A DNA stretch of 37,997 bases from an uncultured Fimbriimonadales bacterium (GTDB taxonomy: Bacteria > Armatimonadota > Fimbriimonadia > Fimbriimonadales > GBS-DC), in the NCBI GenBank assembly GCA_937934465.1, contig CALGZO010000289.1:1-37997 (forward strand), read 5' to 3'. The position numbers and the translations under genes are program-made. Shown here one piece after another: positions 2,555 through 32,994 of the stretch (positions are counted from its first letter, which is position 1; every line of letters starts with the position of its first letter). The notes beneath the pieces were generated by a model. The model was given only the letters and a program-made list of their open reading frames with translations, was not told where the DNA came from and ran no database searches.

Positions 2555-4459
2555 ATGATGATTCGATGCATTCTCTGTTTGGCAGGCGTCGTGAGTATCG
2601 CTGTAATCGCGCAAGCGCAACGCACCTCCGCCACCGGCGAGTGGCTCTTCGCTGACCCCCAAGAGATAATCCAGACCGCCACGCGCACCGAACGCCCCGT
2701 CGCCGAATCGTTTACCACCGTGCGCGTGATTACCCGACGCGAAATCGAACTCTCAGGCGCACAGACCATCCAAGAGCTGCTGGAGCGGTTCGTGGTGGAC
2801 TTCGAGGGGCAAGAATCCTCGCAGCACCGCTTTTTGAGCATGCGCGGCGCGTATAGCTCGTCGGAGTTCAACGAGCGGATGCTCTTCCTGCTGGATGGGC
2901 AGCCGCTGAACGATGTGCTGCTGGGCAACTTCCCCGCGATGAGCCTCAGCACGCACGATGTGGAGCGCATCGAGATTGCCTTCGGTCCTGGCTCGGCGAT
3001 GTACGGACCGAACGCTTTTGCGGGCGTGGTGAACATTCTCACGCAGCAGGGCGACACGGGGCGTCCCTCCCTCTGGAACGGCTACGCCGAGCGCGGCGGC
3101 TACACCGCCTCCCTGCGCTGGATGAACGCCCCCGACGCGCCCAGCAAACTCAGCCTGCAGACCTCCTTCTGGCGCGACCCCGGCAGCGACCGCATCCGCA
3201 ACAACGATACCCAAGTACGCACCGCGCGACTCGCCTTCTCACAAGGTACGCCCGAACGCGGACTGTGGCGCGTCAACTACATCTATAACGACATGGATCG
3301 CGGGCTGGTGGGCATGCGCTACTACACTTACCCCACCCCCACCGACCGACTCTTCTGGCGCACGCACTACTGGCAAGCCGCCTACCAACGCGCCTTCGGC
3401 GACGCTCTGCAAACCACGCGCCTCTACGGCGTCGCAGGCGACACTATCTTCCTCAAGGTGCAAGACCAACCCCCCCTCACAGGCAACGAACCGCGCACGC
3501 GCATGCCACTTAGCCAGAGCATGCTCGCCGCCGAGACCTACTTCCAGTGGAACCTGCCCAACGCCCAGCTGCTCGCAGGCGTGGACTACCGCACGATGCG
3601 CGCGAGCAGCTCCAACCATCTCGGCGGCAGCCGCAGCGCGACCAACTTCGCGTTGTATGCGCAGGGCGAATGGCAACTCGGACGCTGGCGACCTATTCTG
3701 GGCGCACGCTACGACGCGCACTCCCTCTACGGCAGCCAGCTCAGCCCACGCGCAGGCTTCACTTACATCGCCAGCGAGCAGCATCGCCTCCGCGCCTCGC
3801 TCGGACGCGCCTTCCGCGCCCCCAGCTTCACTGAACTCTACTTGCAACGGTTCTATGTGTGGATGCCCTTCAGCGGCAACCCCGTACCGCTCAGCATCGA
3901 GGGCAACGCCGACCTGCGCCCCGAAACCGTCTTCAGCGCAGAGCTGGGCTACCGATACCTCCACCCGCGCTGGCAACTCGATGTGTCCTACTTCACCTCC
4001 GATATCAGCGACGCCGTCAGCGTGTTCGCCAAAGACCCCAACCAGCCTCTGCTGCGCCAGTATCAGAACCTCTATCGCTTCCGCATCTGGGGCTACACGG
4101 CGGACACAGTGGTCAAGCTCGCGCCTGAGTGGACGCTGAGCGCAGGCTATATGCAGGTGCGCTACACGGGCGGCGTGGAGGAAGACTACAAACCCGCACG
4201 CGAACGCGCCGTGATACGCCTCGCGTATTACCCCGAGCGTGGATTGAGCGGACAGCTGGTGCTGGTCTACCCCGCACGCGGACAGGGCTTCAGCGACGCC
4301 TACGGCTGGAACGCCTACCTGAACCTGATGTACCGCCAAGACGCCCGCAGCCGATGGAACCTGCGCGTGGACAATTTATTTAATGTGCGCACCGAGCTGG
4401 CGCGCTGGGTGCCCGGCGGACGGCGCAGCGTGTGGGTGGCGTATCAGAGGGATTGGTGA
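2555..4459 (+). CDS. TonB-dependent outer-membrane receptor (BtuB-like small TBDR)
   Basis: Signal peptide ending AQA. TonB-box/plug-like QEIIQTATRTERPV...TTVRVITRREIE. Long beta-barrel-like sequence ending in the aromatic C-terminus AYQRDW. SD GAGGTGA lies before the ATG. The start is only 4 nt after the receiver gene stop. Confidence 0.85.
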   Translation: MMIRCILCLAGVVSIAVIAQAQRTSATGEWLFADPQEIIQTATRTERPVAESFTTVRVITRREIELSGAQTIQELLERFVVDFEGQESSQHRFLSMRGAYSSSEFNERMLFLLDGQPLNDVLLGNFPAMSLSTHDVERIEIAFGPGSAMYGPNAFAGVVNILTQQGDTGRPSLWNGYAERGGYTASLRWMNAPDAPSKLSLQTSFWRDPGSDRIRNNDTQVRTARLAFSQGTPERGLWRVNYIYNDMDRGLVGMRYYTYPTPTDRLFWRTHYWQAAYQRAFGDALQTTRLYGVAGDTIFLKVQDQPPLTGNEPRTRMPLSQSMLAAETYFQWNLPNAQLLAGVDYRTMRASSSNHLGGSRSATNFALYAQGEWQLGRWRPILGARYDAHSLYGSQLSPRAGFTYIASEQHRLRASLGRAFRAPSFTELYLQRFYVWMPFSGNPVPLSIEGNADLRPETVFSAELGYRYLHPRWQLDVSYFTSDISDAVSVFAKDPNQPLLRQYQNLYRFRIWGYTADTVVKLAPEWTLSAGYMQVRYTGGVEEDYKPARERAVIRLAYYPERGLSGQLVLVYPARGQGFSDAYGWNAYLNLMYRQDARSRWNLRVDNLFNVRTELARWVPGGRRSVWVAYQRDW

Positions 4460-4470
4460 TTCCACGACGA

Positions 4471-4567
4471 TGAATCGGGATTCATCGGGAATGAATCGGG
4501 ATTCATCGAGAATGAATCGGGATTCATCGGGAATGAATCGCGATTCATTCAGATTGAATCGCGATCC
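4471..4567. repeat. Tandem array of five 21-bp units, each carrying the palindrome TGAATC-NN-GATTCA
   Basis: Palindrome copies start at 4471, 4492, 4513, 4534 and 4555. Copies 1-3 are TGAATCGGGATTCA, copy 4 is TGAATCGCGATTCA, and copy 5 is the degenerate TGAATCGCGATCC. The array sits in the gap between the TBDR stop (4459) and the next CDS. Confidence 0.9.
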
Positions 4568-4600
4568 GTTATCATTGGGTAAACTCAGCAGGAGAGAACA

Positions 4601-5284
4601 ATGCCTGGTGGAATCCCTATCCCTACAGGAGGCTTATCGATGGGACGGAGTTATATACCAAGGCCCGACACGGACTTTTTGGCGTGGATGAATAACTTTC
4701 TGACGGCGTTGAACGCGAACTTGAGCGCTTTTGGCTTGGTGGCAGCCGACCTGACGCCGCTGACCAACGCTCGCAATGACTTCCAGACGAAGCTGGGCGC
4801 GTTCCAATCGGCGCAGATCGCCTTGCGCACTGCTTCGGAAGCCAAGAAAGACTCGCGCGACACGGCGGAGTCGCTCTTTCGGCAGATGGCGCAGCGGATT
4901 AACCGCCACCCGAACATGACCGACGCCTTGCGCGCGCAGTTGGGGCTGACCGTGCCGCGCCCGCGCCAGCGTCGGGGCGTGGGACCCGAAATCCCCGGCG
5001 TGCGCTTGGAAGTGGACGCAGGGCGCGTGATTGTCCACTTCGGCACGAACCCCGACGATGAACGGCGCAACGGCAAGCCCGAGTGGGCAATAGGGGCGAA
5101 CATCTACATTCGCGAAGAGAGCGAGAGCGCGTATCGCCTCTTGGCGTTCGACACGGCAAGCCCGTACATGTGGGAATATCGTGGGGCGCCGAAGCGGTTC
5201 TATTTCCGCGTGGCGTATCGGGGCGTGCGGGAGCAAGATGAGGGCACGCCCAGCCCTGAAGAGGTGGTTAGCGTCGGCGGATGA
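4601..5284 (+). CDS. Hypothetical protein (helical N-terminal half, beta-rich C-terminal half); function unknown
   Basis: ORF with SD-like AGGAGAG before ATG 4601. An alternative start at ATG 4640 is preceded by GGAGG. Codon usage looks like the neighbours. I recognise no family motif. Confidence 0.6.
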   Translation: MPGGIPIPTGGLSMGRSYIPRPDTDFLAWMNNFLTALNANLSAFGLVAADLTPLTNARNDFQTKLGAFQSAQIALRTASEAKKDSRDTAESLFRQMAQRINRHPNMTDALRAQLGLTVPRPRQRRGVGPEIPGVRLEVDAGRVIVHFGTNPDDERRNGKPEWAIGANIYIREESESAYRLLAFDTASPYMWEYRGAPKRFYFRVAYRGVREQDEGTPSPEEVVSVGG

Positions 5285-5287
5285 ACC

Positions 5288-7201
5288 TCACCACTCCAGC
5301 ACGCTGACCGACATCGGCGGGAAGGTGTGGCGCATCAGGCTGCCGCCGCGCAGGGTGCGCTGGGCAAGCCCTTTCGCCTTGGCTGTATCCTGCGCCGCCG
5401 AGTAGTACCACCAGTAGACACTGCTCCCAGCGCGTAGCCCTTGCAGCCGAATCGCCACGGTAATCGGCGTGCTGCGCATCTTGTTAATCACCAGCAGTCT
5501 GCCCTTGCCGTTGGGCGTGCGCACGGCGTAAATGCGCAGCATGGGGTTGTCGCAGTTCACGGCGACCAGCGTATCGCCAGGTCGGGCGAAGCGGTTGATG
5601 AGTTGGACGGCGAAGAAGGTGGGGTAGGGCGTGTGGAGCGGGTCGCCCACGCCCGACGGATAGCCTGCCGACACGACGCCGTAGTCGCCCCAGTTGCGCC
5701 AGCCGTAGAGCAGTGCGCTGTTGTTATTGTGCGCCTCCGCCGAGTTGTGCAAATCCCACCACGCATAAGCGTCCGCGCCCGCCAGTATCGCCTGCGCCCA
5801 CGAATCTGCCATGTAAAGCGCGTTCACCACGCTTGTCGTCTGCTTGCCCGGATTGAAGGCGACGGAGTTGTTCTCGGTGACGAAGATGGGGACGCTGTTG
5901 CCTGCCGCGCCCAAGTAGTCGCGCAGGATTTGGCGCATCTGCGAGATAATCTCGCCCCAAGTGCGTGGGTCATCCAGCAGAAAAGCGTCGTCTTCGCGTC
6001 CGGGTTGTTGGGGGTAGTGGTGTACATCGAAAAAGTCGGGGACGACGCCGAAACTGCTGAGGCGGTTGAGCAGCACGGGCGTCCAGCCGTTGTGCGATTG
6101 CCCTGTGCGCGGGTTTGTCACGCTGAACCGCTGGGGGTACTCGGTCTCGGTGAACACGCCGACCACGCCGACCTTGATGGTAGGGTCTACCGCCTTCATC
6201 TGTTGTATCGCGTCGCGGGCGAACTCGGCGTAGGTGTGCGCGTCGTGGCGGTTGGGGTAGGTGTCATGCTCCCACGAGCCGTAGTTCTCGTTGCCAATCG
6301 TCCAGTAGCGCACGCCGCCGTTGCGCTGGATATTAGCATACTGCACCCAGTCGGCGGCTTCTTGGGGCGTCCCCGAACCGTAGTTGACGCAGATAATCTT
6401 CTCCGCGCCCAACTCGTTCGCGACACCGAGAAAGCCGTCGGTGGCTGTGCCGTAGTCGGCGTTGGTGCGCCTGTTGCGGTTGGCGCGCCAGTCGTATTCG
6501 TTGGTGATGGAGCCGCCAGGATAGCGCATCGCGCCGAAGTTCGCCTGCTTCAGCAGGGCGCGCCGTTCAGGACTCGTGAGCGACCAGTCCCAGCAGGCGA
6601 CATTGATGCCCAGCATCAGTGGGGTGATGGTGCGCCCTGAAGCGTTGAAGTTCACCGTCGCCGACGCCTGATTACTGACTTGCGCGCGAACGAGGCGAAT
6701 ATCGTCCAAATAGAACGCGGGCACGCTCTGCCCCGAAAACTCCCGAAAGTGAATGCCCGTGAGACGGTCGCCTGAGTTGACCCCCAACGCGCTCAGCGGA
6801 ACCTGCACGCGCGTCCACTGATTGGCAGGGAGGCTACTCACAAAATTGTTAATCGGCACAGGCGGACGCTCCACGCCGTCCACCTCGGCGCGTAGATGGA
6901 ACTGGGGATTGCCCACGCTCCCCCCATGCACCCAGAACTCCAAGTGGCTGAAGCCGTCAATAACGAAGCCCGTCGGGTTCTTGAACAAGATAGACGACCA
7001 CGGGAAGAACTCCACGCGGATTGAGTATTGTCCCGAGCGCACGGGGCTGGCGTTTTGCATGTTGCGGTTCGCCCACGACCAATCTTCCCAGCGTCCAGCA
7101 GGATAGTCGCGATAGATGGCAGGGTGTGCGAAGTCGTCGGGGTGAGCGACGCCGAACGCGCCCATCAGCGCTGCCGTTAGGATGGCGATTTTGACCGACA
7201 T
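5288..7201 (-). CDS. Secreted clan GH-A (beta/alpha)8 glycoside hydrolase with N-terminal CBM-like beta-sandwich
   Basis: Signal peptide MSVKIAILTAALMGAFGVA, with SD GGAGGA upstream of ATG 7201. WTIGNENYGSWE is acid/base-like (GNE) and PIFVTENNS is nucleophile-like (TEN). I cannot assign the exact GH family by eye (GH5/30/39/51-like). Confidence 0.75.
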   Translation of the reverse strand: MSVKIAILTAALMGAFGVAHPDDFAHPAIYRDYPAGRWEDWSWANRNMQNASPVRSGQYSIRVEFFPWSSILFKNPTGFVIDGFSHLEFWVHGGSVGNPQFHLRAEVDGVERPPVPINNFVSSLPANQWTRVQVPLSALGVNSGDRLTGIHFREFSGQSVPAFYLDDIRLVRAQVSNQASATVNFNASGRTITPLMLGINVACWDWSLTSPERRALLKQANFGAMRYPGGSITNEYDWRANRNRRTNADYGTATDGFLGVANELGAEKIICVNYGSGTPQEAADWVQYANIQRNGGVRYWTIGNENYGSWEHDTYPNRHDAHTYAEFARDAIQQMKAVDPTIKVGVVGVFTETEYPQRFSVTNPRTGQSHNGWTPVLLNRLSSFGVVPDFFDVHHYPQQPGREDDAFLLDDPRTWGEIISQMRQILRDYLGAAGNSVPIFVTENNSVAFNPGKQTTSVVNALYMADSWAQAILAGADAYAWWDLHNSAEAHNNNSALLYGWRNWGDYGVVSAGYPSGVGDPLHTPYPTFFAVQLINRFARPGDTLVAVNCDNPMLRIYAVRTPNGKGRLLVINKMRSTPITVAIRLQGLRAGSSVYWWYYSAAQDTAKAKGLAQRTLRGGSLMRHTFPPMSVSVLEW

Positions 7202-7337
7202 AATCTGTTCCTCCGTAGACCTGCAAAGCCGCCTTCCCAACGCTGACGAGAACGCGCCTTCGCTAACAGTATTATAGCCCAGATTTCAGGTAGTAGGCAG
7301 TGCAGGGCGAGGTATCCTATAGCGCGTTTGACGCACG

Positions 7338-9095
7338 ATGGCGATGGAACCGCAGGTGCTGTTGAAGATAAGTAGGCTCGATGGGCGGAGCGTCTGGCTG
7401 TCGGGTCGAACGCCTGAGAGTGTGCTGGTCGCCGAGTCTTATGCGGATGTGTTGCCTGTGCTATCGGAGGTGGAGCGTGCGACGCAGCAGGGTCTCACAG
7501 CGGTCGGTTTTGTAGCCTACGAAGCCGCGCACGGGCTGGACAGGGCGTTCCCCCAAGCGTGCGCTAAGTCGCCGCTGGCATGGTTCGCGCTCTATCGGCG
7601 GTTGGAAGCGCACGGCGCGGCGCCCTTGCCTCCGCTCGGCTGTGAGCAGCGCATTCGGTGGCGTCCCACGCTGTCCGAACGCGCCTATCGCTGCGCTTTG
7701 GAGCGTATTCGCGCGTACATCGAGGCGGGCGATGTGTATCAGGTGAACTACACCTTTCGCTTGCGCTCGGAGTGGAGTAGCGAGCCGAGTGAACTGTTGA
7801 CTCTGTTCGGGCAGCTCTATCACGCGCAGCCTGTGCCTTACGCTGCCTACATCAACACAGGCGCGCAGGTGATTCTCTCGCTCTCGCCTGAACTGTTCTT
7901 CGCGTTGGAGGGGGAGCGGATTATCACGCGCCCGATGAAGGGCACTGCGCCGCGCGGGGTGGGGCAGGCAGACGACTTGTGGCAAGCGCAGGCGTTGCGC
8001 ACCTGCGCGAAGAACCGCGCCGAGAACCTGATGATTGTGGACATGGCGCGCAACGATTTGGGACGCATCGCGCGTGTGGGGAGCGTGCGTGTGCCGCGCC
8101 TGTTCGAGGCGGAACGCTACGCGACCCTGTGGCAGATGACCTCCACAGTGGAGGCGTGTAGCGACGCGCCGCTGCCCGAAATCTTCCGCGCGCTGTTTCC
8201 TGCAGCGTCCATCACAGGCGCGCCCAAAATCCGCGCGACGCAGATTATCCGTGAGTTGGAGACCACCCCGCGCGGCGTCTACACAGGCGCCATCGGCGTC
8301 GTGGCGCCCCATAGGCGCGCGCAGTTCAATGTCGCCATCCGCACGCTGGTCTACGACCGAGCCGAGCAGCAAATGGAATACGGCGTGGGCAGCGGCGTGG
8401 TGTGGGACTCTGACCCCCACGCCGAGTACGAGGAGTGCTTGGCGAAAGCGCAGGTACTCTTGAGGCGCGCCCCCGAATTTGAGTTGCTGGAGACCCTGCT
8501 GTGGCGTCCGCGCGGGGGCTACTTTTTGCTGGAGCAACATCTGCAGCGGCTCTTACGCTCGGCGGACTACTTCGGCTTCTCAGTGGACGCTGGCGCGGTT
8601 CGGGCGAAGTTGCTCGAGGCGGCGCAGGGGTTCACGGCGTCCCTGCGCTATCGCGTGCGCGTGCGTGTCAATCGGCGCGGCGAGGCGTGCGTGGAGTACG
8701 CGCCGCTATCACACGCCCCCCACCCTTGGCGCGTGGCGCTCGCTGCGGAGCCTGTCAACCCGCGCGATGTGTTTCTATACCACAAGACCACGCATCGGGC
8801 AGTGTACGAGCAGGCGCGCGCCGCGCACCCCAACTGCGACGATGTAATCTTGTGGAACACGCGCGGCGAGATTACCGAGTCCACAATCGCGAATGTGGCA
8901 GTGCGTCTCGACGGCAGGCTCTACACGCCCCCTGTGGCGTGCGGACTGCTCGCGGGCGTCTATCGGGAGCGGCTGCTGAAGCGCGGCTGGCTCCGCGAGC
9001 GTGTCATCCGTGTAGACGAGCTCGCCCGTGCGGAGGCAATTTATCTGATTAACTCCGTGCGCGGTCGCGTGCGTGCGCAGCTGATACGCGCTTAG
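7338..9095 (+). CDS. pabB: Aminodeoxychorismate synthase component I fused to an aminodeoxychorismate lyase-like (class IV aminotransferase fold) domain
   Basis: Chorismate-binding motifs MKGTAPRG, NLMIVDMARNDLGR, SITGAPKIRATQII and RGVYTGAIG. A C-terminal region of about 200 aa has a PabC/IlvE-like pattern (ESTIANV..., LAGV.R..L). Confidence 0.85.
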   Translation: MAMEPQVLLKISRLDGRSVWLSGRTPESVLVAESYADVLPVLSEVERATQQGLTAVGFVAYEAAHGLDRAFPQACAKSPLAWFALYRRLEAHGAAPLPPLGCEQRIRWRPTLSERAYRCALERIRAYIEAGDVYQVNYTFRLRSEWSSEPSELLTLFGQLYHAQPVPYAAYINTGAQVILSLSPELFFALEGERIITRPMKGTAPRGVGQADDLWQAQALRTCAKNRAENLMIVDMARNDLGRIARVGSVRVPRLFEAERYATLWQMTSTVEACSDAPLPEIFRALFPAASITGAPKIRATQIIRELETTPRGVYTGAIGVVAPHRRAQFNVAIRTLVYDRAEQQMEYGVGSGVVWDSDPHAEYEECLAKAQVLLRRAPEFELLETLLWRPRGGYFLLEQHLQRLLRSADYFGFSVDAGAVRAKLLEAAQGFTASLRYRVRVRVNRRGEACVEYAPLSHAPHPWRVALAAEPVNPRDVFLYHKTTHRAVYEQARAAHPNCDDVILWNTRGEITESTIANVAVRLDGRLYTPPVACGLLAGVYRERLLKRGWLRERVIRVDELARAEAIYLINSVRGRVRAQLIRA

Positions 9096-10180
9096 GCAGT
9101 TGAGAGGGTCTGGGCGCGCTCGCCGACGCGCTCCAGAGCGGTGCGCATCACGGCTTCGCTGGGGGCGCGGCTGCGCAAGTGCTGTTCGCACATTCGGAAC
9201 GGATAGAGCAGTCGGTCGTAGCGCGGGTCGGGCAGGCTCAACGGGCGCGTCTCCTGCAGCAGCCACGCCGAGATGCGATCCGCCCACTCGCGCGTGTCGT
9301 CGGGACTGGTCAGCACGGGCGTCTCAACGCGCACCAGCCCATAAGTTGGCGACGCGCCCTGCTGCCAGCGCAACCGCAAGTACCAACTGTAGACCTCGCT
9401 CTGACCCTGACGCACGGGACGAAAGACGCTGCTGCGATAGCCTGCAGGCATGTTCAGCACCTGTAGCATCCAGTTAATCTCCAGATAGCTGGTGCGGTGC
9501 GACTTCGAGACGCCCACTACCTGCACCAGTTTGCGCCGTTCCAGCGCGCTCATCAGGTCGGCTATCGAGCCGTCCACCAGCAGCCAGTTGGTGGAGCTGG
9601 GCGTCTGCTGGTCAATCCACTGCAGGGCGAGTTTGCGCTCCAGATGGTCGCGCACGCGCGCTACAGTCGCTCCCGCACGCACCAGCATCGTGTTGAAGGA
9701 GGTCTTCTCCAGCTCGCGCTCCTCCAACGAGTCGTAGACGGTCAGCCCCGCGCGTTTGAACTTCTTGGCGTCGAACGCTTTGAGCGGCAAAAAGAGCGCC
9801 TCTTCTGCCTGCGTCAGCGCAGGGACAGGGTGCAGCTCGCGCTCGCGTCGCTCCAGCACCATCGCCGCCACATAGCCATACACGACGGGCAACAAACCTT
9901 TTAAAGTCTGCTGATAGTATAGCAAGTGTGAATGCTGGACGCCGTCGATGAAGTGCGTGAACTGCGTTGTCTCGTTGGCGGGCGGCACAGGGAACACGCC
10001 AAACTCACGGCGACCTGCCTCATGCACTAACATCGCGCTTGAGAAGCCCCCCTCCTCCTCTGGCGGCTCGATAGTGTCTTCGCTGCTCACCCGACGCACC
10101 ACTTGCACGCCCTCTGGGTTCTCGCGCAGGAACCGCGCCAACCGCTGCAGAAACTCGGTCATAGAGTTGAAGATTCGCAC
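9092..10180 (-). CDS. NurA-like nuclease domain protein (orphan; no HerA partner in the window)
   Basis: [24 protein letters not shown] and a C-terminal [12 protein letters not shown] resemble the NurA motif series (DGS ... DG ... GvSKs ... yP..l..aH). The listed start is GTG; an alternative ATG lies at 10162. The assignment is by eye only. Confidence 0.5.
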
Positions 10181-11809: not shown

Positions 11810-12169
11810 ATGCAACGCAAACCGAACGAGACACGCCTCTATCGGCAGGAGATGAACGAGCGCATCCTCAACAGCGGGTTCAAGCCGTTCCAGCGGTTCT
11901 TCGCGCTCGACGCCAGCGCGTACACCGAAGGCGCTATCCCCGTCAAATACAAAGAGCTGATGGGGCTGGTCGGCTCGATGGTGCTTCGCTGCAACGATTG
12001 CATCTTCTATCACTTAGACCGCTGCGTGCAGGAAGGCGCGACGCGCGAGGAGCTGCACGAGGCGATGAACATCGCGCTCATCATCGGCGGCTCAATCGTG
12101 ATTCCGCACCTCAGATACGCCTACGAGATGATGGACGCGCTCTTGGCTGAGCAGGAGGGGCAAGCATGA
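11810..12169 (+). CDS. Carboxymuconolactone decarboxylase / AhpD-like family protein
   Basis: KELMGLVGSMVLRCNDCIFYHL carries the CxxC..H core of the AhpD/CMD fold. The gene starts 5 nt after the pdxT stop. Confidence 0.8.
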   Translation: MQRKPNETRLYRQEMNERILNSGFKPFQRFFALDASAYTEGAIPVKYKELMGLVGSMVLRCNDCIFYHLDRCVQEGATREELHEAMNIALIIGGSIVIPHLRYAYEMMDALLAEQEGQA

Positions 12170-17445: not shown

Positions 17446-17641
17446 GCACGGACATTCCTGTCCGTGCGCAAAGAGTTATGCAGGGTAAACCTTGCGACGC
17501 CACGAATGGCGTCGCACCTTGTGGGGCTTGGACACGACTGTCCAAGCCACTGTGGCACGGACATTCCTGTCCGTGCGCACTTGGACAAGACTGTCCAAGC
17601 CACTTGACACACTGTCAAAGTGCTGTTTGACAGTGTGTCAA
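17446..17641. repeat. Cluster of six GC-rich stem-loops, including two duplicated 25-nt modules (REP-like intergenic repeats or a structured RNA)
   Basis: GCACGGACATTCCTGTCCGTGCGCA occurs at 17446 and again at 17555, identically. CTTGGACA(C/A)GACTGTCCAAGCCACT occurs at 17527 and 17580 with one mismatch. TGCGACGCCA-cgaa-TGGCGTCGCA lies at 17493-17516. A perfect 16-bp stem lies at 17604-17619/17626-17641. Confidence 0.85.
17604..17641 (-). terminator. Putative argF terminator or stabiliser hairpin (perfect 16-bp stem, 6-nt loop)
   Basis: TTGACACACTGTCAAA / TTTGACAGTGTGTCAA. The arm on the argF side contains the argF stop codon (17638-17640). No U-tract follows on the minus strand, so it is not a canonical intrinsic terminator. 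Confidence 0.45.
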
Positions 17642-18606
17642 TCTCCAAGTAAGAGCGCGAGCAACGCCTTTTGCGTGTGTAAACGATTCTCCGCCTGATC
17701 CCAGACGGCGGACTGCGCGCCGTCTAACACGGCGTCTGTAATCTCTTCGCCGCGGCGGGCGGGTAGACAGTGTAAAACAATCGCGTCGGGCTTGGCAAGA
17801 CGGAGCAAGTCCTCGTTGACCTGAAACGCCTGAAACTGTCGCATGCGCGCCTCGCGTTCTGTCTCATAGCCCATCGAGACCCAGACATCGGTGTAAACCG
17901 CGTCGGCGTCGGCGACGGCTTCGCGGGGATTGTGTGTCAGCTGCACCTGTCCACCCGATTGACTGCCCAGTTGGCGCGCTTGCTCGATTACGGAGGCGTT
18001 CGGCGCGTATCCATCGGGCGTTGCAATGTGGACTTCGTGTCCCAACAGCGCAGCGAGCATGGTGAAGCTATGGCAAACATTATTGCCATCGCCCACCCAC
18101 GCGAGTTTGAGCGGCGCGTCGCCTTTGCGTTCCTGAATGGTCATCAAATCCGCCAACGCCTGACAGGGATGCTCGCGTTCGCTGAGCGCGTTAATCACGG
18201 GGACCTCCGAGAAGCGAGTCAGCTCTTCCAGCGTGCTGTGCAGGAACACGCGAGCAATCACGCCGCGCACCCAGCGCGAGAGGTTCCGTGCGATATCCAT
18301 GACTGCCTCGCGCTTGCCCATCTGGATGTCGTTCTGTGTCAGGTAGACGCCGTGTGCGCCCATCTGATACAGCCCCACCTCCAGCGTGACTCGCGTGCGC
18401 AGCGACGGCTTCTCGAAAATCAGCGCGAGGGCAGTGGGGGACGCAAATCGGAACAGTTCCTGACCGCTGTGCGTGGCGCGTTTCATCGCGTGCGCGAGCG
18501 ATAGCGCCACACGCGCCGTCTCTAAGTTCAAATCTGCTATCGACAGGTAGTGTCGCGGCGGGTTCGAACCGCGCCACTGCTCAAGGGCTTGCTCATAAGT
18601 TGTCAT
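17638..18606 (-). CDS. argF: Ornithine carbamoyltransferase
   Basis: SLRTRVTLEVG (an S-x-R-T-R carbamoyl-phosphate motif), HPCQALADL, DVWVSMG and HCLPA. SD GAGGAG lies before ATG 18606. Confidence 0.9.
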   Translation of the reverse strand: MTTYEQALEQWRGSNPPRHYLSIADLNLETARVALSLAHAMKRATHSGQELFRFASPTALALIFEKPSLRTRVTLEVGLYQMGAHGVYLTQNDIQMGKREAVMDIARNLSRWVRGVIARVFLHSTLEELTRFSEVPVINALSEREHPCQALADLMTIQERKGDAPLKLAWVGDGNNVCHSFTMLAALLGHEVHIATPDGYAPNASVIEQARQLGSQSGGQVQLTHNPREAVADADAVYTDVWVSMGYETEREARMRQFQAFQVNEDLLRLAKPDAIVLHCLPARRGEEITDAVLDGAQSAVWDQAENRLHTQKALLALLLGD

Positions 18607-18801
18607 GACAGACTCCTCAGATGGTGTAAATGCGTTCTCGCCTCGCCTGAACCGACGGCTGCGTCGTTCCAAGCGAAGCGAGAACTCTTAACTAAGCCAC
18701 TTAGATTGTACCTTCTTTCGCCTGCGCACACCCTGTCTTGCCGAGCGCAGCGAGGCATCTCACTGAGAGGAGTCGCCCCATTTGCCCCGAACTATTGCGC
18801 T

Positions 18802-31255: not shown

Positions 31256-31904
31256 GCCTGCGCGTGATGCCAGTAGCAGGGCTTCCAAGCTGCTGGTGAT
31301 GGGGCTATTCGTCGCGCCAGTGGTCTTGACCGTGTTGGTGTTGGCGTCGCCGTGGTTTCGCAGCGTGCGCGCGGCGCAAATCCAGCGCAACGAGCAGTTG
31401 CTGCAGGCGGTGGAATCGGGCGAGATTGAGCAGGTGCGGCGCGTGCTGACAGGCGGCGCAGTGGTGAACGCCCGCACACGCTCAGGGCTAACCGCGCTAA
31501 GCATCGCCGTAATCCGCGGCTACGACGACATCGCCTTGCTGCTGATTGCGAAAGGCGCAAGTTTGGACGCGCGCGATAAGTCGGGCGACCGCGAGAACCG
31601 CACCCCAGGCAACTCGCCAGTGCATTACGCGGCAATCTACGGCAGGACGCGCGTGCTGCAGGCGATGCTCGACAAGGGCGTCTCACCCAACTTGCGCGAC
31701 CGCAACGGACGCACCTTGCTCATGATGGCAGCTGAGAACGGGCATGTGGACACGGTTCGGATGTTACTACAACGCGGGGCTAACCCAAGCGCTCAGAGCG
31801 CACTGGGCGACACAGCGCTGGACGCCGCCAAGCGCAGCGGCGACCCTGAAATCCTGCGCTTAATCCAGAAGCACCTGAAAGCTACGAAGGCTCCTGACCA
31901 CTGA
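31239..31904 (+). CDS. Membrane-anchored ankyrin-repeat protein
   Basis: N-terminal TM segment LLVMGLFVAPVVLTVLVLA. At least four ANK repeats follow: GLTALSIAVIRGYDDIALLLIAKGASLDARD, SPVHYAAIYGRTRVLQAMLDKGVSPN, RTLLMMAAENGHVDTVRMLLQRGANP and DTALDAAKRSGD. The start overlaps the hisC end by 17 nt; an alternative ATG lies at 31299. Confidence 0.8.
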   Translation: MRSVNEPARDASSRASKLLVMGLFVAPVVLTVLVLASPWFRSVRAAQIQRNEQLLQAVESGEIEQVRRVLTGGAVVNARTRSGLTALSIAVIRGYDDIALLLIAKGASLDARDKSGDRENRTPGNSPVHYAAIYGRTRVLQAMLDKGVSPNLRDRNGRTLLMMAAENGHVDTVRMLLQRGANPSAQSALGDTALDAAKRSGDPEILRLIQKHLKATKAPDH

Positions 31905-32994
31905 TAAGCGCGTTCAGTTTCTGCTCAAACGCATCCAGACTGCCGCTGCGGAGCGCTTCCTGCTGAAGCGAGAGCAGCAGGTCGTATTGACGAACCTTCT
32001 GAATGCGTTCGATAAGGGATGCGGGCACTCCGCCGTAAAGAGTCTGCAGCGAGGTTAGTATAACGGTCTGTAGCGTGGCTATGCGTCCCTCGTTGAAGCC
32101 TTCAGCGCGTCCTTCGGCGCGTCCCTCGTTGAAGCCTTCAGCGCGTCCTTCAGCGCGTCCTTCCTCATAGCCTTCGACATACTGCTTGCGTAGCTCGCGC
32201 TCCATAAACGAGGGCATCACTCGGATGCCATGTTCGCGCTTGATCTGCTCCAGCATCTGCTGGAATTCCTGTTCCATCTGTTCTGAGAGTTGCATAATCC
32301 ACTCCAGTAGTCCCAAAATCTCGCTGACCTGCTGATCATTATACCCGCGCTCTATAGCGAGTCTGGCAAGCTCTAAGCGCGCTTGCAGGCGCAGGGACTG
32401 CTTCCGTCGCGTCAGGATGGCGCGTTTAAACGCTACCAAAATCAACCCTGCTGGGCTGCCATCTTCCAGTAGCTGCGTCTCATCCAAATCCAGCACCTTA
32501 ATCGTGTTGAACTCGAACACGACACGAGACTTGCCGATACCGCGTTCGTACCTCGAAGGTCGCCACTTAGGGCTCGAGTCTGCCAAGATAGCCAGCGTCA
32601 GAACCGTTCGGCGATAGCGTAGCCAAATCGCCGCGTTGTAGGCGTACAGCCGCTCCTCAAAGTTCGGGTCGGGCTTGGACTGTATCTCGATGTGGATTAA
32701 AATCCACAGTTCCTTGCCGTTTTTGAGGTAGACCTTGATAAGTTTGTCGACAATTTGCCGCCCTGTGACGCTGCGCGGCGCGATTTGCTGGAGCTCCGTG
32801 TCCAGATACTCCACGCCACGATCCCAGTCCAAAAGGTTGCCCAGTTCTTTGTCGACTATCTCGATGAGATAACGCACATGGTCAGGCGTCTCGACATACA
32901 GTTTCCACGCTGTATCGTAGCGCGGTACCAATGCACTGATAGCAACATTTCGCATAGTGACGGATGTTCGGCGAATGGGGACGATTTCCTGCAA
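31882..32994 (-). CDS. Rpn/YhgA-like PD-(D/E)XK nuclease ('putative transposase') with a DUF4351-like C-terminus
   Basis: N-terminal YDTAWK corresponds to the Rpn HD..FK motif. D-KLIKV...WILIHIEIQS corresponds to the Rpn D...vEhQS nuclease core. A Glu/Gly repeat region (EGRAEGRAEGFN x2) is followed by a helical tail, LQTLYGGVPASLIERIQKV...LLSLQQEAL. An alternative start lies at 32955. GC is visibly lower than the surroundings. Confidence 0.65.
   Translation of the reverse strand: MQEIVPIRRTSVTMRNVAISALVPRYDTAWKLYVETPDHVRYLIEIVDKELGNLLDWDRGVEYLDTELQQIAPRSVTGRQIVDKLIKVYLKNGKELWILIHIEIQSKPDPNFEERLYAYNAAIWLRYRRTVLTLAILADSSPKWRPSRYERGIGKSRVVFEFNTIKVLDLDETQLLEDGSPAGLILVAFKRAILTRRKQSLRLQARLELARLAIERGYNDQQVSEILGLLEWIMQLSEQMEQEFQQMLEQIKREHGIRVMPSFMERELRKQYVEGYEEGRAEGRAEGFNEGRAEGRAEGFNEGRIATLQTVILTSLQTLYGGVPASLIERIQKVRQYDLLLSLQQEALRSGSLDAFEQKLNALISGQEPS
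32083..32163. repeat. In-frame 36-bp tandem duplication inside the Rpn-like gene
   Basis: GCGTCCCTCGTTGAAGCCTTCAGCGCGTCCTTC(G/A)GC occurs at 32083 and 32119 with one mismatch, plus a partial third copy. It encodes (EGRAEGRAEGFN)x2. Confidence 0.85.

Follow-up and report, generated by a model that had tools for sequence, protein, structure and literature searches.

The stretch examined here, hereafter the window, comprises 37,997 nucleotides of contig CALGZO010000289.1 from an uncultured Fimbriimonadales bacterium (Armatimonadota; assembly GCA_937934465.1), read on the forward strand. Its element of interest is a tandem array of five 21-bp units, which begins 10 bp past the stop codon (4457-4459) of a gene for a TonB-dependent receptor (2555-4459) and lies upstream of a gene for a 214-residue protein belonging to an uncharacterized family. 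All evidence discussed below is comparative and computational, and of the source genome the analysis covered this 38-kb window. The features of the locus are the following:

4470-4574 (no strand assigned): tandem array of 5 x 21-bp units, with unit starts at 4470, 4491, 4512, 4533 and 4554
4471-4484 (no strand assigned): box 1, TGAATCGGGATTCA
4492-4505 (no strand assigned): box 2, TGAATCGGGATTCA
4513-4526 (no strand assigned): box 3, TGAATCGGGATTCA
4534-4547 (no strand assigned): box 4, TGAATCGCGATTCA
4555-4568 (no strand assigned): box 5, TGAATCGCGATCCG, decayed, with 2 mismatches, overlapping the promoter-like hexamers
4548-4585 (plus strand): promoter-like elements TTCAGA-16-TATCAT (4548-4575) and TAAACT (4580-4585), recognized by consensus scan only
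4588-4593 (plus strand): GCAGGA motif, about 7.5 bp modulo 10.5 from the array dyads, conserved after every array type
4594-4639 (plus strand): leader, with the Shine-Dalgarno sequence AGGAGG at 4627-4632 and an alternative in-frame ATG at 4601
4640-5284 (plus strand): gene for the 214-aa protein of an uncharacterized family, the companion of the array, described from homologues and a structure model
4460-4666 (plus strand): hypervariable cassette made up of the array, the leader and the first ~9 codons, with limits drawn from related loci

Examination of the array confirms the five palindromes at an exact 21-bp spacing that a preliminary description of this DNA had reported. Their starts (4471, 4492, 4513, 4534 and 4555) are separated by 21 bp at each step, Tandem Repeats Finder calls a repeat at 4470-4565 (period 21, 4.6 copies, 90% matches), and the lag-21 autocorrelation reaches 0.81, where shuffles give at most 0.45. 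Allowing up to 2 mismatches, the box is matched 6 times in the window versus 0.74 expected, a count that none of 100 shuffles reaches; the sixth match, at 12092, is at chance level. The box palindrome extends to 7-bp arms (ATGAATC-GG-GATTCAT), so that the window unit reads as an arm ATGAATC, a central GG, an inverted arm GATTCAT and a spacer CGGGA. As successive arms point in opposite directions, each spacer is itself spanned by a second palindrome, GATTCAT-CGGGA-ATGAATC. The first three copies had been described as identical and the last two as progressively decaying. The former is correct for the boxes, with spacers that differ by one base (TCGGGAA versus TCGAGAA); of the latter, box 5 is indeed decayed, but box 4 is still a perfect palindrome, now with a GC center.

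Seventy-one metagenome loci (L001-L071) were fetched via relatives of the 214-aa protein, 66 of them with at least 200 bp of upstream sequence; many of them come from a few hot-spring metagenomes of the Yellowstone type and are hence not independent. An array with a 21-bp period lies at most 320 bp from the gene start in 50 of the 66, and in the remaining 16 the 5' end has been replaced by a MITE (miniature inverted-repeat transposable element) or rearranged. Given that none of the neighboring genes in the window recurs among the 71 related loci, the array is tied to the gene and not to its neighbors. Copy number ranges from 2.6 to 8.6 among the related loci and differs even where the flanks are identical (3 in L013 versus 5 in L001; 5, 6 or 7 in L028, L003 and L005), which identifies the array as a true variable-number tandem repeat (VNTR); this had been among the alternatives of the preliminary description, and the near-identical loci vindicate it. 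A profile search recovered 482 relatives of the family, all of them labeled "hypothetical", and an exhaustive search yielded 6136 representatives at 50% identity with E <=1e-3 (3354 with E <=1e-10). Clear 21- or 42-bp arrays are present in five of the eight distant members with readable DNA (L107, L157, L158, L163 and L165). The Tannerellaceae (Bacteroidota) locus L107, whose protein is 30% identical, contains 19 copies of TCGAATCTGGATTCAAGTCAC followed by GGCAGGGA; the L163 array begins GGGGAAGTCCC, and that of L165 has a 42-bp super-period. A further distant locus, L167, has a decayed, weak 21-bp array. Seven more members display a 7- or 14-residue periodicity in the extensions of their upstream open reading frames (ORFs), implying 21- or 42-bp arrays in the underlying DNA. 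A check for a phage origin found no relatives of the family in IMG/VR.

Comparison of the units reveals a common plan, namely an arm, a first spacer (s1), an inverted arm and a second spacer (s2). The arms measure 4-7 bp and the total is always 21, such that a change of length in one spacer is offset by the other. The representative units, with the lengths of arm, s1, arm and s2 where these were derived, are:

Window: 6-2-6-7, unit ATGAATCGGGATTCATCGGGA
L169: 5-5-5-6
L004: 6-4-6-5, unit TCTTCCATCGGAATGGAAACC
L008: 6-1-6-8, unit CCATCGGCGATGGAAACTGTA
L007: 7-1-7-6, unit GCTATTGATCGTCGATCAATC
L024: 6-0-6-9, unit ATCCTATCGATAGGAACGGCG
L040: 6-0-6-9, unit CTATCAATCGTCGTCTGATAG
L107: 5-2-5-9
L158: 5-7-5-4
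L003: unit CGATGAATCCCGATTCACTGA
L009: unit GTCGCGATCGACGATTACAAG
L022: unit CGCCGAAGTTATCGATAACCT
L051: unit ACGCCATCTTTTGATCTTTAG
L170: unit ATCGAACGCCGATCGATAGCT

By this geometry, two-fold axes recur every 10.5 bp along one face of B-DNA. Several units are perfect palindromes without a central spacer (CCTATCGATAGG, TGATAGCTATCA and TTATCGATAA), a form that suits two-fold recognition of duplex DNA and not hairpin loops. The lattice is also in register with the sequence downstream of it: GCAGGA follows arrays of all types, frequently with a -10-like hexamer in front of it (TATCCT in L008; TAAACT in L169 and the window), and the distance from the dyads to GCAGGA modulo 10.5 clusters at 7.5 +/- ~1 in 13 array types, including the Bacteroidota one (R=0.80, Rayleigh p ~3e-5). 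In L022, which was added after this 13-type set, the value is 9.5. The phase of the ATG relative to the dyads is random (R=0.08).

A 42-bp super-period of alternating A and B units is seen in L004, L007, L008, L009, L022, L040/L063 and L165, and with the protein P0176; in L022 identity reaches 97% at lag 42 versus 76% at lag 21. The working unit could be a pair of sites spanning four helical turns.

This conserved geometry is combined with an extensive turnover of sequence. About 12 unit types are found in Armatimonadota, most pairs of which match at 8-12 of 21 positions when every rotation on either strand is allowed, with random 21-mers averaging 9.8. The best autocorrelation lag is nonetheless 21 or 42 in every unit type (0.73-0.90, with shuffles at <=0.50) and in 18 of 20 loci tested, distant homologues included. 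The window array was considered as an inverted L003 type and this was rejected, as 17/21 reverse versus 15/21 direct matches are too weak to claim it. The syntenic orthologue L169 (contig JBKBKS010000181 of the metagenome-assembled genome GCA_046294565.1) is collinear with 3642-6919 of the window at 86.6% identity over 3281 bp, ungapped, and shares the TonB receptor, the array, the gene (93% identical protein) and a convergent unknown gene. It contains exactly five 21-bp units between shared flanks (TTCCACGACG ... GGGTAAACT, the latter including the conserved TAAACT). Unit 1 (ACGAATCGCGATTCATCGGCG) resembles the window unit, and units 2-5 are TGGAAGAGGATTTCCATCGCG, built on another palindrome, TGGAA-N6-TTCCA. 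The sequence has thus been replaced without a change in frame, period, copy number or dyad positions, which by itself is incompatible with a conserved site recognized by sequence, such as an ARG box.

The turnover extends beyond the array itself, as is apparent from loci that have different array types but the same neighbors (L005 versus L001; L003 versus L024 and L040). From about codon 10 on, their coding DNA is 92-100% identical (95% over 1556 bp between L005 and L001), and the upstream gene is 80-87% identical between loci of different array type; no alignment between array types is possible over the ~250-300 bp in between, which run from the array through the leader to the first ~9 codons. 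The N-terminal residues follow the array type (MAAGYIPRND, MAREYIPYND, MTRYIPPND, MPRTDYIPNPD, MANRDYLPRND and MGRSYIPRPD); proteins of the A, A', G and H types are distinguished almost entirely by residues 2-9. Since the divergence of the flanks is so low, point mutation is excluded as the source of this cassette; judging from these alignments, it must either have been exchanged by recombination or comprise old alleles that were retained while the flanks were homogenized.

The 214-aa protein encoded downstream has no match in Pfam, NCBIfam, PHROGs or PADLOC, and a PDB sequence search with it was negative. In its confident AlphaFold model (predicted local distance difference test score, pLDDT, 88), a 54-residue helix dominates the N-terminal domain, and the C-terminal one is an FN3-like sandwich. 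A fold search of the model identified the C-terminal half as a generic FN3 domain only, and the N-terminal domain modeled alone (pLDDT 89.5) had no significant match among solved structures. Ribbon-helix-helix families were not recovered for 40 N-terminal fragments (Pfam, E <=10), by a PDB profile search or by the fold search of the N-terminal domain, a negative that is limited by the inability of a monomer model to reveal a dimeric β-ribbon. Given that the homologues are nearly all ~214 aa long, the ATG at 4640, behind the AGGAGG at 4627-4632, is the likely start. The gap of 141 bp that had been given between the receptor stop and the next start codon is correct only if the gene starts at the ATG at 4601; with the ATG at 4640, which fits the 214-aa homologues, it measures 180 bp. 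The in-frame ATG at 4601, 13 codons before the usual start and ~7 nt after GCAGGA, is found only in the closest relatives (L004, L169 and L170), and the stretch GGAATCCC is conserved in the window (4601-4639) and in these three loci. In the subclade of the window the true start could therefore be either of the two ATGs.

The observed array, with its strict period, its linkage to one gene family, its phased dyad lattice, its variation in copy number and its turnover of sequence, is in our view best explained as a helically phased, dyad-symmetric and putatively protein-binding platform of variable copy number in promoter DNA, an explanation that we hold to have about an even chance of being right. 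The strict two-turn period, the compensating spacers, the dyad lattice and the fixed phase together point to a function that depends on the helix face of duplex DNA. The promoter-like elements sit within and just past the last units of the array. Little space is left for a promoter ahead of the array: the upstream gene has a terminator-like hairpin ~20 bp before it in several locus types, and in the window a stop codon lies 10 bp away. This, too, points to a function on duplex DNA. We propose that the array might be the upstream control region of the ~214-aa gene, working as double-stranded DNA, with its dyads in a fixed helical register with GCAGGA and the -10-like region just downstream. A dimeric DNA-binding protein would fill successive dyads cooperatively, and the resulting one-sided filament or wrap, beside or over the promoter, could set the transcription of the gene. 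Gain or loss of whole units would alter the number of sites without altering their phase, and copy number might in this way serve as a tuning parameter. Protein binding, an effect on transcription and the sign of this effect, be it activation or repression, are what we infer from this geometry.

Several observations weigh against this proposal. The gene product has no recognizable DNA-binding domain in Pfam, PDB profile and fold searches, and no binder was identified; the matches to consensus promoters are weak. Among the distant members, L161 is without an array and L168 has a 9-bp repeat in place of a 21-bp one. The conserved phase and frame may be partly inherited through in-register replacement of units as opposed to selected, and complementary changes of the arms can arise by template switching at palindromes, without selection. 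Furthermore, a sequence-specific trans factor must change with each array type despite flanks that are 95-100% identical. As the array types change between near-identical flanks, such a factor is hard to reconcile with the data unless it is encoded by the cassette or reads DNA shape.

The promoters of these organisms are also illustrated by an upstream gene for a PEP-CTERM/dockerin-like protein, which has a textbook TTGACA-17-TATAAT promoter (CTTGACATCCCACAGGATGTGCTATAAT; L001:4612-4640, L011:4391-4420, L005:195-222 and L019:263-292), implying that canonical sigma-70 promoters are in use. The same gene is internally repetitive, giving many offset BLAST alignments. A sigma-54 promoter in front of the 214-aa gene, downstream of the repeats and with upstream enhancer sites, was considered and rejected, since the GG-N10-GC spacing (TGGCAC-N5-TTGCA) fits, by eye, only L169, L004 and L008, and neither the window nor most other loci.

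The hypervariable block has sharp edges and encloses exactly the array, the leader and the N-terminal residues. As noted for a trans factor, the change of array type between nearly identical flanks leaves a recognizer that either reads shape or is encoded in the cassette; it is difficult to see how a factor whose gene lies elsewhere would keep pace with a dozen array types when the flanks are 95-100% identical. Because the sole coding sequence of the cassette is the N-terminus of the protein itself, we tentatively consider, as a possibility that is doubtful but worth stating, that the array and the first ~9 codons co-vary as the two matched halves of a specificity pair, in which the protein would bind its own array via a hypervariable N-terminal arm (x-x-x-Y-I-P-x-x-D). 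It might then oligomerize along the 10.5-bp dyad lattice, with each gene copy being a self-addressed module that is either autoregulatory or marks its own DNA. The recognition code would diversify as it does at pherotype loci or in the centromere/ParR pairs of plasmids, and recombination would homogenize the remainder of the gene. If true, this would constitute a widespread single-gene DNA-recognition system with a new DNA-binding domain and a rapidly evolving code.

Other accounts of the array dispense with a protein bound to duplex DNA. It could act as an RNA element in the 5' untranslated region, where tandem hairpins or a long fold-back would control the stability or translation of the mRNA or bind an RNA-binding protein. 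The region does fold well (-71.4 kcal/mol, z=-3.9), the arms change in a complementary manner between types, and read-through from the TonB-receptor gene is possible in the window, where no terminator is predicted. However, the antisense strand folds equally well (z=-4.4), and G.T mismatches, which would be G.U pairs on the sense strand, number 40 versus 71 A.C, without any enrichment. Hairpins would require neither an exact 21-nt period nor a 10.5-bp phase to a downstream DNA motif; the arms, A/T-rich and 5-7 bp long, make weak stems in an organism from a hot spring; in several palindromes there is no loop; the leader is without conserved structure; and no Rfam match was found (the window at gathering thresholds, 4380-4720 at E up to 1). 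We consider this account unlikely. The more specific suggestion in the preliminary description of a terminator, processing element or attenuator formed by hairpins fares no better: 4300-5400 contains no terminator-like site, and the same lack of a G.U bias, of an Rfam match and of a consensus leader structure, together with the A/T-rich arms, leaves an intrinsic terminator or attenuator without positive support. DNA shape by itself, through in-plane bends (curvature) or cruciform extrusion that modulates the promoter independently of any protein, would account for a fixed period with free sequence. In a dinucleotide wedge model, which is crude and not validated for thermophile conditions, 21-bp arrays bend by ~80 degrees per 7 units versus 37 for random sequence and 15-40 for 20-bp arrays. 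Against this, real units are not more bent than shuffled ones (mean ~76 versus ~81 degrees), giving no sign of selection for curvature, and curvature leaves the inverted-repeat arms unexplained. In this model curvature may be a by-product of the 21-bp period, and we regard shape alone as a rather improbable cause.

The freely varying copy number (2.6-8.6), the homogenization of units within arrays, often with a 42-bp super-period, and the unconstrained sequence are also what a functionless minisatellite would display, if inherited with the gene and maintained by slippage and gene conversion. Such a minisatellite should not keep its position and period all the way from Armatimonadota to homologues of 30% identity in Bacteroidota, hold its total at 21 by compensating spacers, or be locked in phase to GCAGGA, and neutral repeats are normally deleted from bacterial genomes; we accordingly assign it a low probability. 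Translation of the repeats as 7-residue repeats, in a leader peptide or an N-terminal extension, is very improbable. It is suggested by 21 bp being 7 codons, by the ATG in each window unit (MNRDSSG frame), and by some loci whose array is an open frame continuous with that of the gene, so that gene callers give products of 270-300 aa. Yet in the window a TAA at 4580-4582 closes the frame of the gene after the array and ahead of the two candidate ATGs, and the ATGs of the units lie in another frame. Frames differ between loci (L107), the variation within arrays is not concentrated at third codon positions, the peptides share nothing between types, and the "long" members are as frequent as chance open frames in G+C-rich DNA predict.

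The ARG-box-like character stressed in the preliminary description has to be divided into geometry and identity. The ARG box is an 18-bp imperfect palindrome, TGAAT-N4-ATTCA, with an A/T-rich center, and tandem boxes lie 21 bp apart. The operator-like geometry stands, in that the palindromes are two helical turns apart on the same face of the DNA, and both the TGAAT-N4-ATTCA core and the 21-bp center-to-center distance match. An array of ArgR/AhrC operators is nevertheless the least credible of the readings, with next to no likelihood, in view of the center, the location and the orthologues: 1) the box center is G/C-rich (CGGG/CGCG); 2) TGAAT-N4-ATTCA with <=1 mismatch occurs nowhere else in the 38-kb window, the ornithine carbamoyltransferase gene (17638-18672) included; 3) the downstream gene encodes an uncharacterized FN3-domain protein unrelated to arginine metabolism; 4) L169 has TGGAA-N6-TTCCA in 4/5 units and other orthologues carry about a dozen unrelated units. 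A textbook-looking match, here ARG-box half-sites at 21 bp, can be a coincidence.

Scattering of the unit over unrelated intergenic sites, which the preliminary description had named as the mark of a generic repeat, was not observed within this lineage. The unit occurs only at this locus in the window and, in 241 kb of related loci, only upstream of the gene, and for this lineage we reject a dispersed repetitive extragenic palindrome (REP), bacterial interspersed mosaic element (BIME) or MITE. A genuine MITE with TACCAATCGC ends is present in relatives as a separate element. When 185,579 species genomes were scanned for GAATCNNGATTC-N9-GAATCNNGATTC, 85 loci were returned, about half of them 7-bp microsatellites (GAATCNN/GATTCNN). 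The true 21-bp arrays among them (in Acidobacteriota, Bacteroidales, Poribacteria and others) have unrelated neighbors, and only L107 adjoins a family member. The heptamer microsatellites, which contain GANTC, are widespread in Acidobacteriota, Planctomycetota, Bacteroidota and others, and long 21-bp arrays on GGAATCGCGATTCC are seen in Acidobacteriota; the loci concerned fall within L072-L156 (e.g. L089, L099, L126, L129 and L146; L100, L102, L138, L140 and L155) and have flanking genes outside the family. An array of clustered regularly interspaced short palindromic repeats (CRISPR) was likewise rejected, as the units are contiguous and the 7-bp "spacers" are themselves repeated.

The MITE-like element is found in or beside arrays (L011:5855-5995, L066:495-820 and L130:3335-3520), with the same type also in L010, L015, L016, L019, L020, L030-L032, L053, L056 and L057. 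It is bounded by terminal inverted repeats TACCAATCGC...GCGATTGGTA and carries GGTTCCCCCTGCAAGCAGGGGGAACC hairpins internally, and its ends (CCAATCGC) resemble frequent array motifs (AATCGCGATT, CAATCGC). In many hot-spring contigs it fuses the first array unit straight to codon ~18 of the gene. Truncated copies (L061:3255-3400, L065:1846-1960, L070:765-830 and L071) consist of a type-H array and leader followed by the first ~45 or ~20 codons only, downstream of which lies either an amidase-like gene or a mutS gene with an intein (LAGLIDADG). From these sequences the 5' part of the gene appears to be a hotspot of rearrangement. In L004 (4780-5800) the coding region upstream of the array is repeatedly broken by inverted heptamer arrays, in which (GGGATTA)n facing (TAATCCC)n would make long hairpins.

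The wider context in the window is chromosomal, with genes for PabB, PdxS/PdxT, ornithine carbamoyltransferase (17638-18672), flagellar proteins and glycosidases. The proteins most similar to those of the window stem from sources that indicate a Fimbriimonadales-like member of Armatimonadota, and look-ups of the exact proteins of the window returned no record. Two minus-strand ORFs, of 650 aa (5288-7240) and 362 aa (9092-10180), are without a Pfam or PHROG match, and the former is conserved and syntenic in L169. A 36-bp tandem repeat at 32083-32175 (2.2-2.6 copies, 12-bp sub-period CCTTCAGCGCGT) lies inside a minus-strand ORF (31882-32994) and is probably a coding repeat.

Among known systems, the ARG boxes of ArgR/AhrC, to which an oligomer binds cooperatively, share with the window array TGAAT...ATTCA palindromes that lie 21 bp apart, center to center, on the same helix face. 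The window differs in having at least five sites rather than two, a G/C-rich center, no arginine genes and a sequence that is not conserved at orthologues. In its geometry the array above all resembles the centromere/operator arrays of the ParR or omega type. These include the 20-bp tandem repeats of parC in pSK41, bound by ParR, the 11-bp iterons of R1 parC and the 7-bp heptads bound by the omega protein, with dimers binding about every helical turn. As in such ribbon-helix-helix arrays, contiguous repeats lie directly upstream of a gene and overlap its promoter, here a putative one, and the sequence diverges quickly among relatives while the architecture is kept. Unlike parC and iterons, the window array is chromosomal, among housekeeping genes, and viral contigs (IMG/VR) contain no relatives; the repeat geometry fits the parC type, but Rep, ParA, ParM and ParR families were not detected in the linked gene or its neighbors. 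DeoR-type (GlpR) tandem operators similarly comprise several adjacent sites about two helical turns apart. They combine cooperative binding with a conserved consensus, a defined regulon and a known repressor gene, in contrast to the window array, which is lineage-specific in sequence and unique to one gene.

With BrickBuilt and contingency loci the array shares intergenic tandem repeats of variable copy number that are able to carry or modulate promoter activity (PMC4596501). BrickBuilt of Porphyromonas gingivalis is a 23-nt minisatellite within a MITE, of which one sequence with inverted-repeat ends is dispersed 19 times per genome (PMC4596501); unlike it, the array is single-copy, confined to one gene family and without terminal inverted repeats, and it has a strict 21-bp period with a changing sequence. 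The TAACTGA heptamers of Beggiatoaceae, Cyanobacteria and Bacteroidetes are likewise short direct repeats, intergenic and just upstream of start codons, in several phyla and, like the array, without a known binding protein (PMC4679880). They consist of one conserved, non-palindromic 7-nt unit in front of many unrelated genes and have been proposed to act at the RNA level (PMC4679880), in contrast to the 21-bp, palindromic and sequence-variable unit that is specific to one gene family here. Our searches of the literature on 21-bp phased intergenic repeats brought up neither this gene family nor any array that is locked in period, hypervariable in sequence and tied to a single family.

The array provides a testable handle on an uncharacterized family that comprises thousands of sequence clusters in environmental bacteria and is entirely without annotation. 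As a cis element whose geometry is conserved across phyla, and whose sequence is replaced even between 87%-identical syntenic loci, it would offer an exceptionally clear natural example of selection that acts on helical phasing and not on sequence. Together these comparisons place the array close to phased operators or VNTR promoter arrays, with a real chance that it represents something new.

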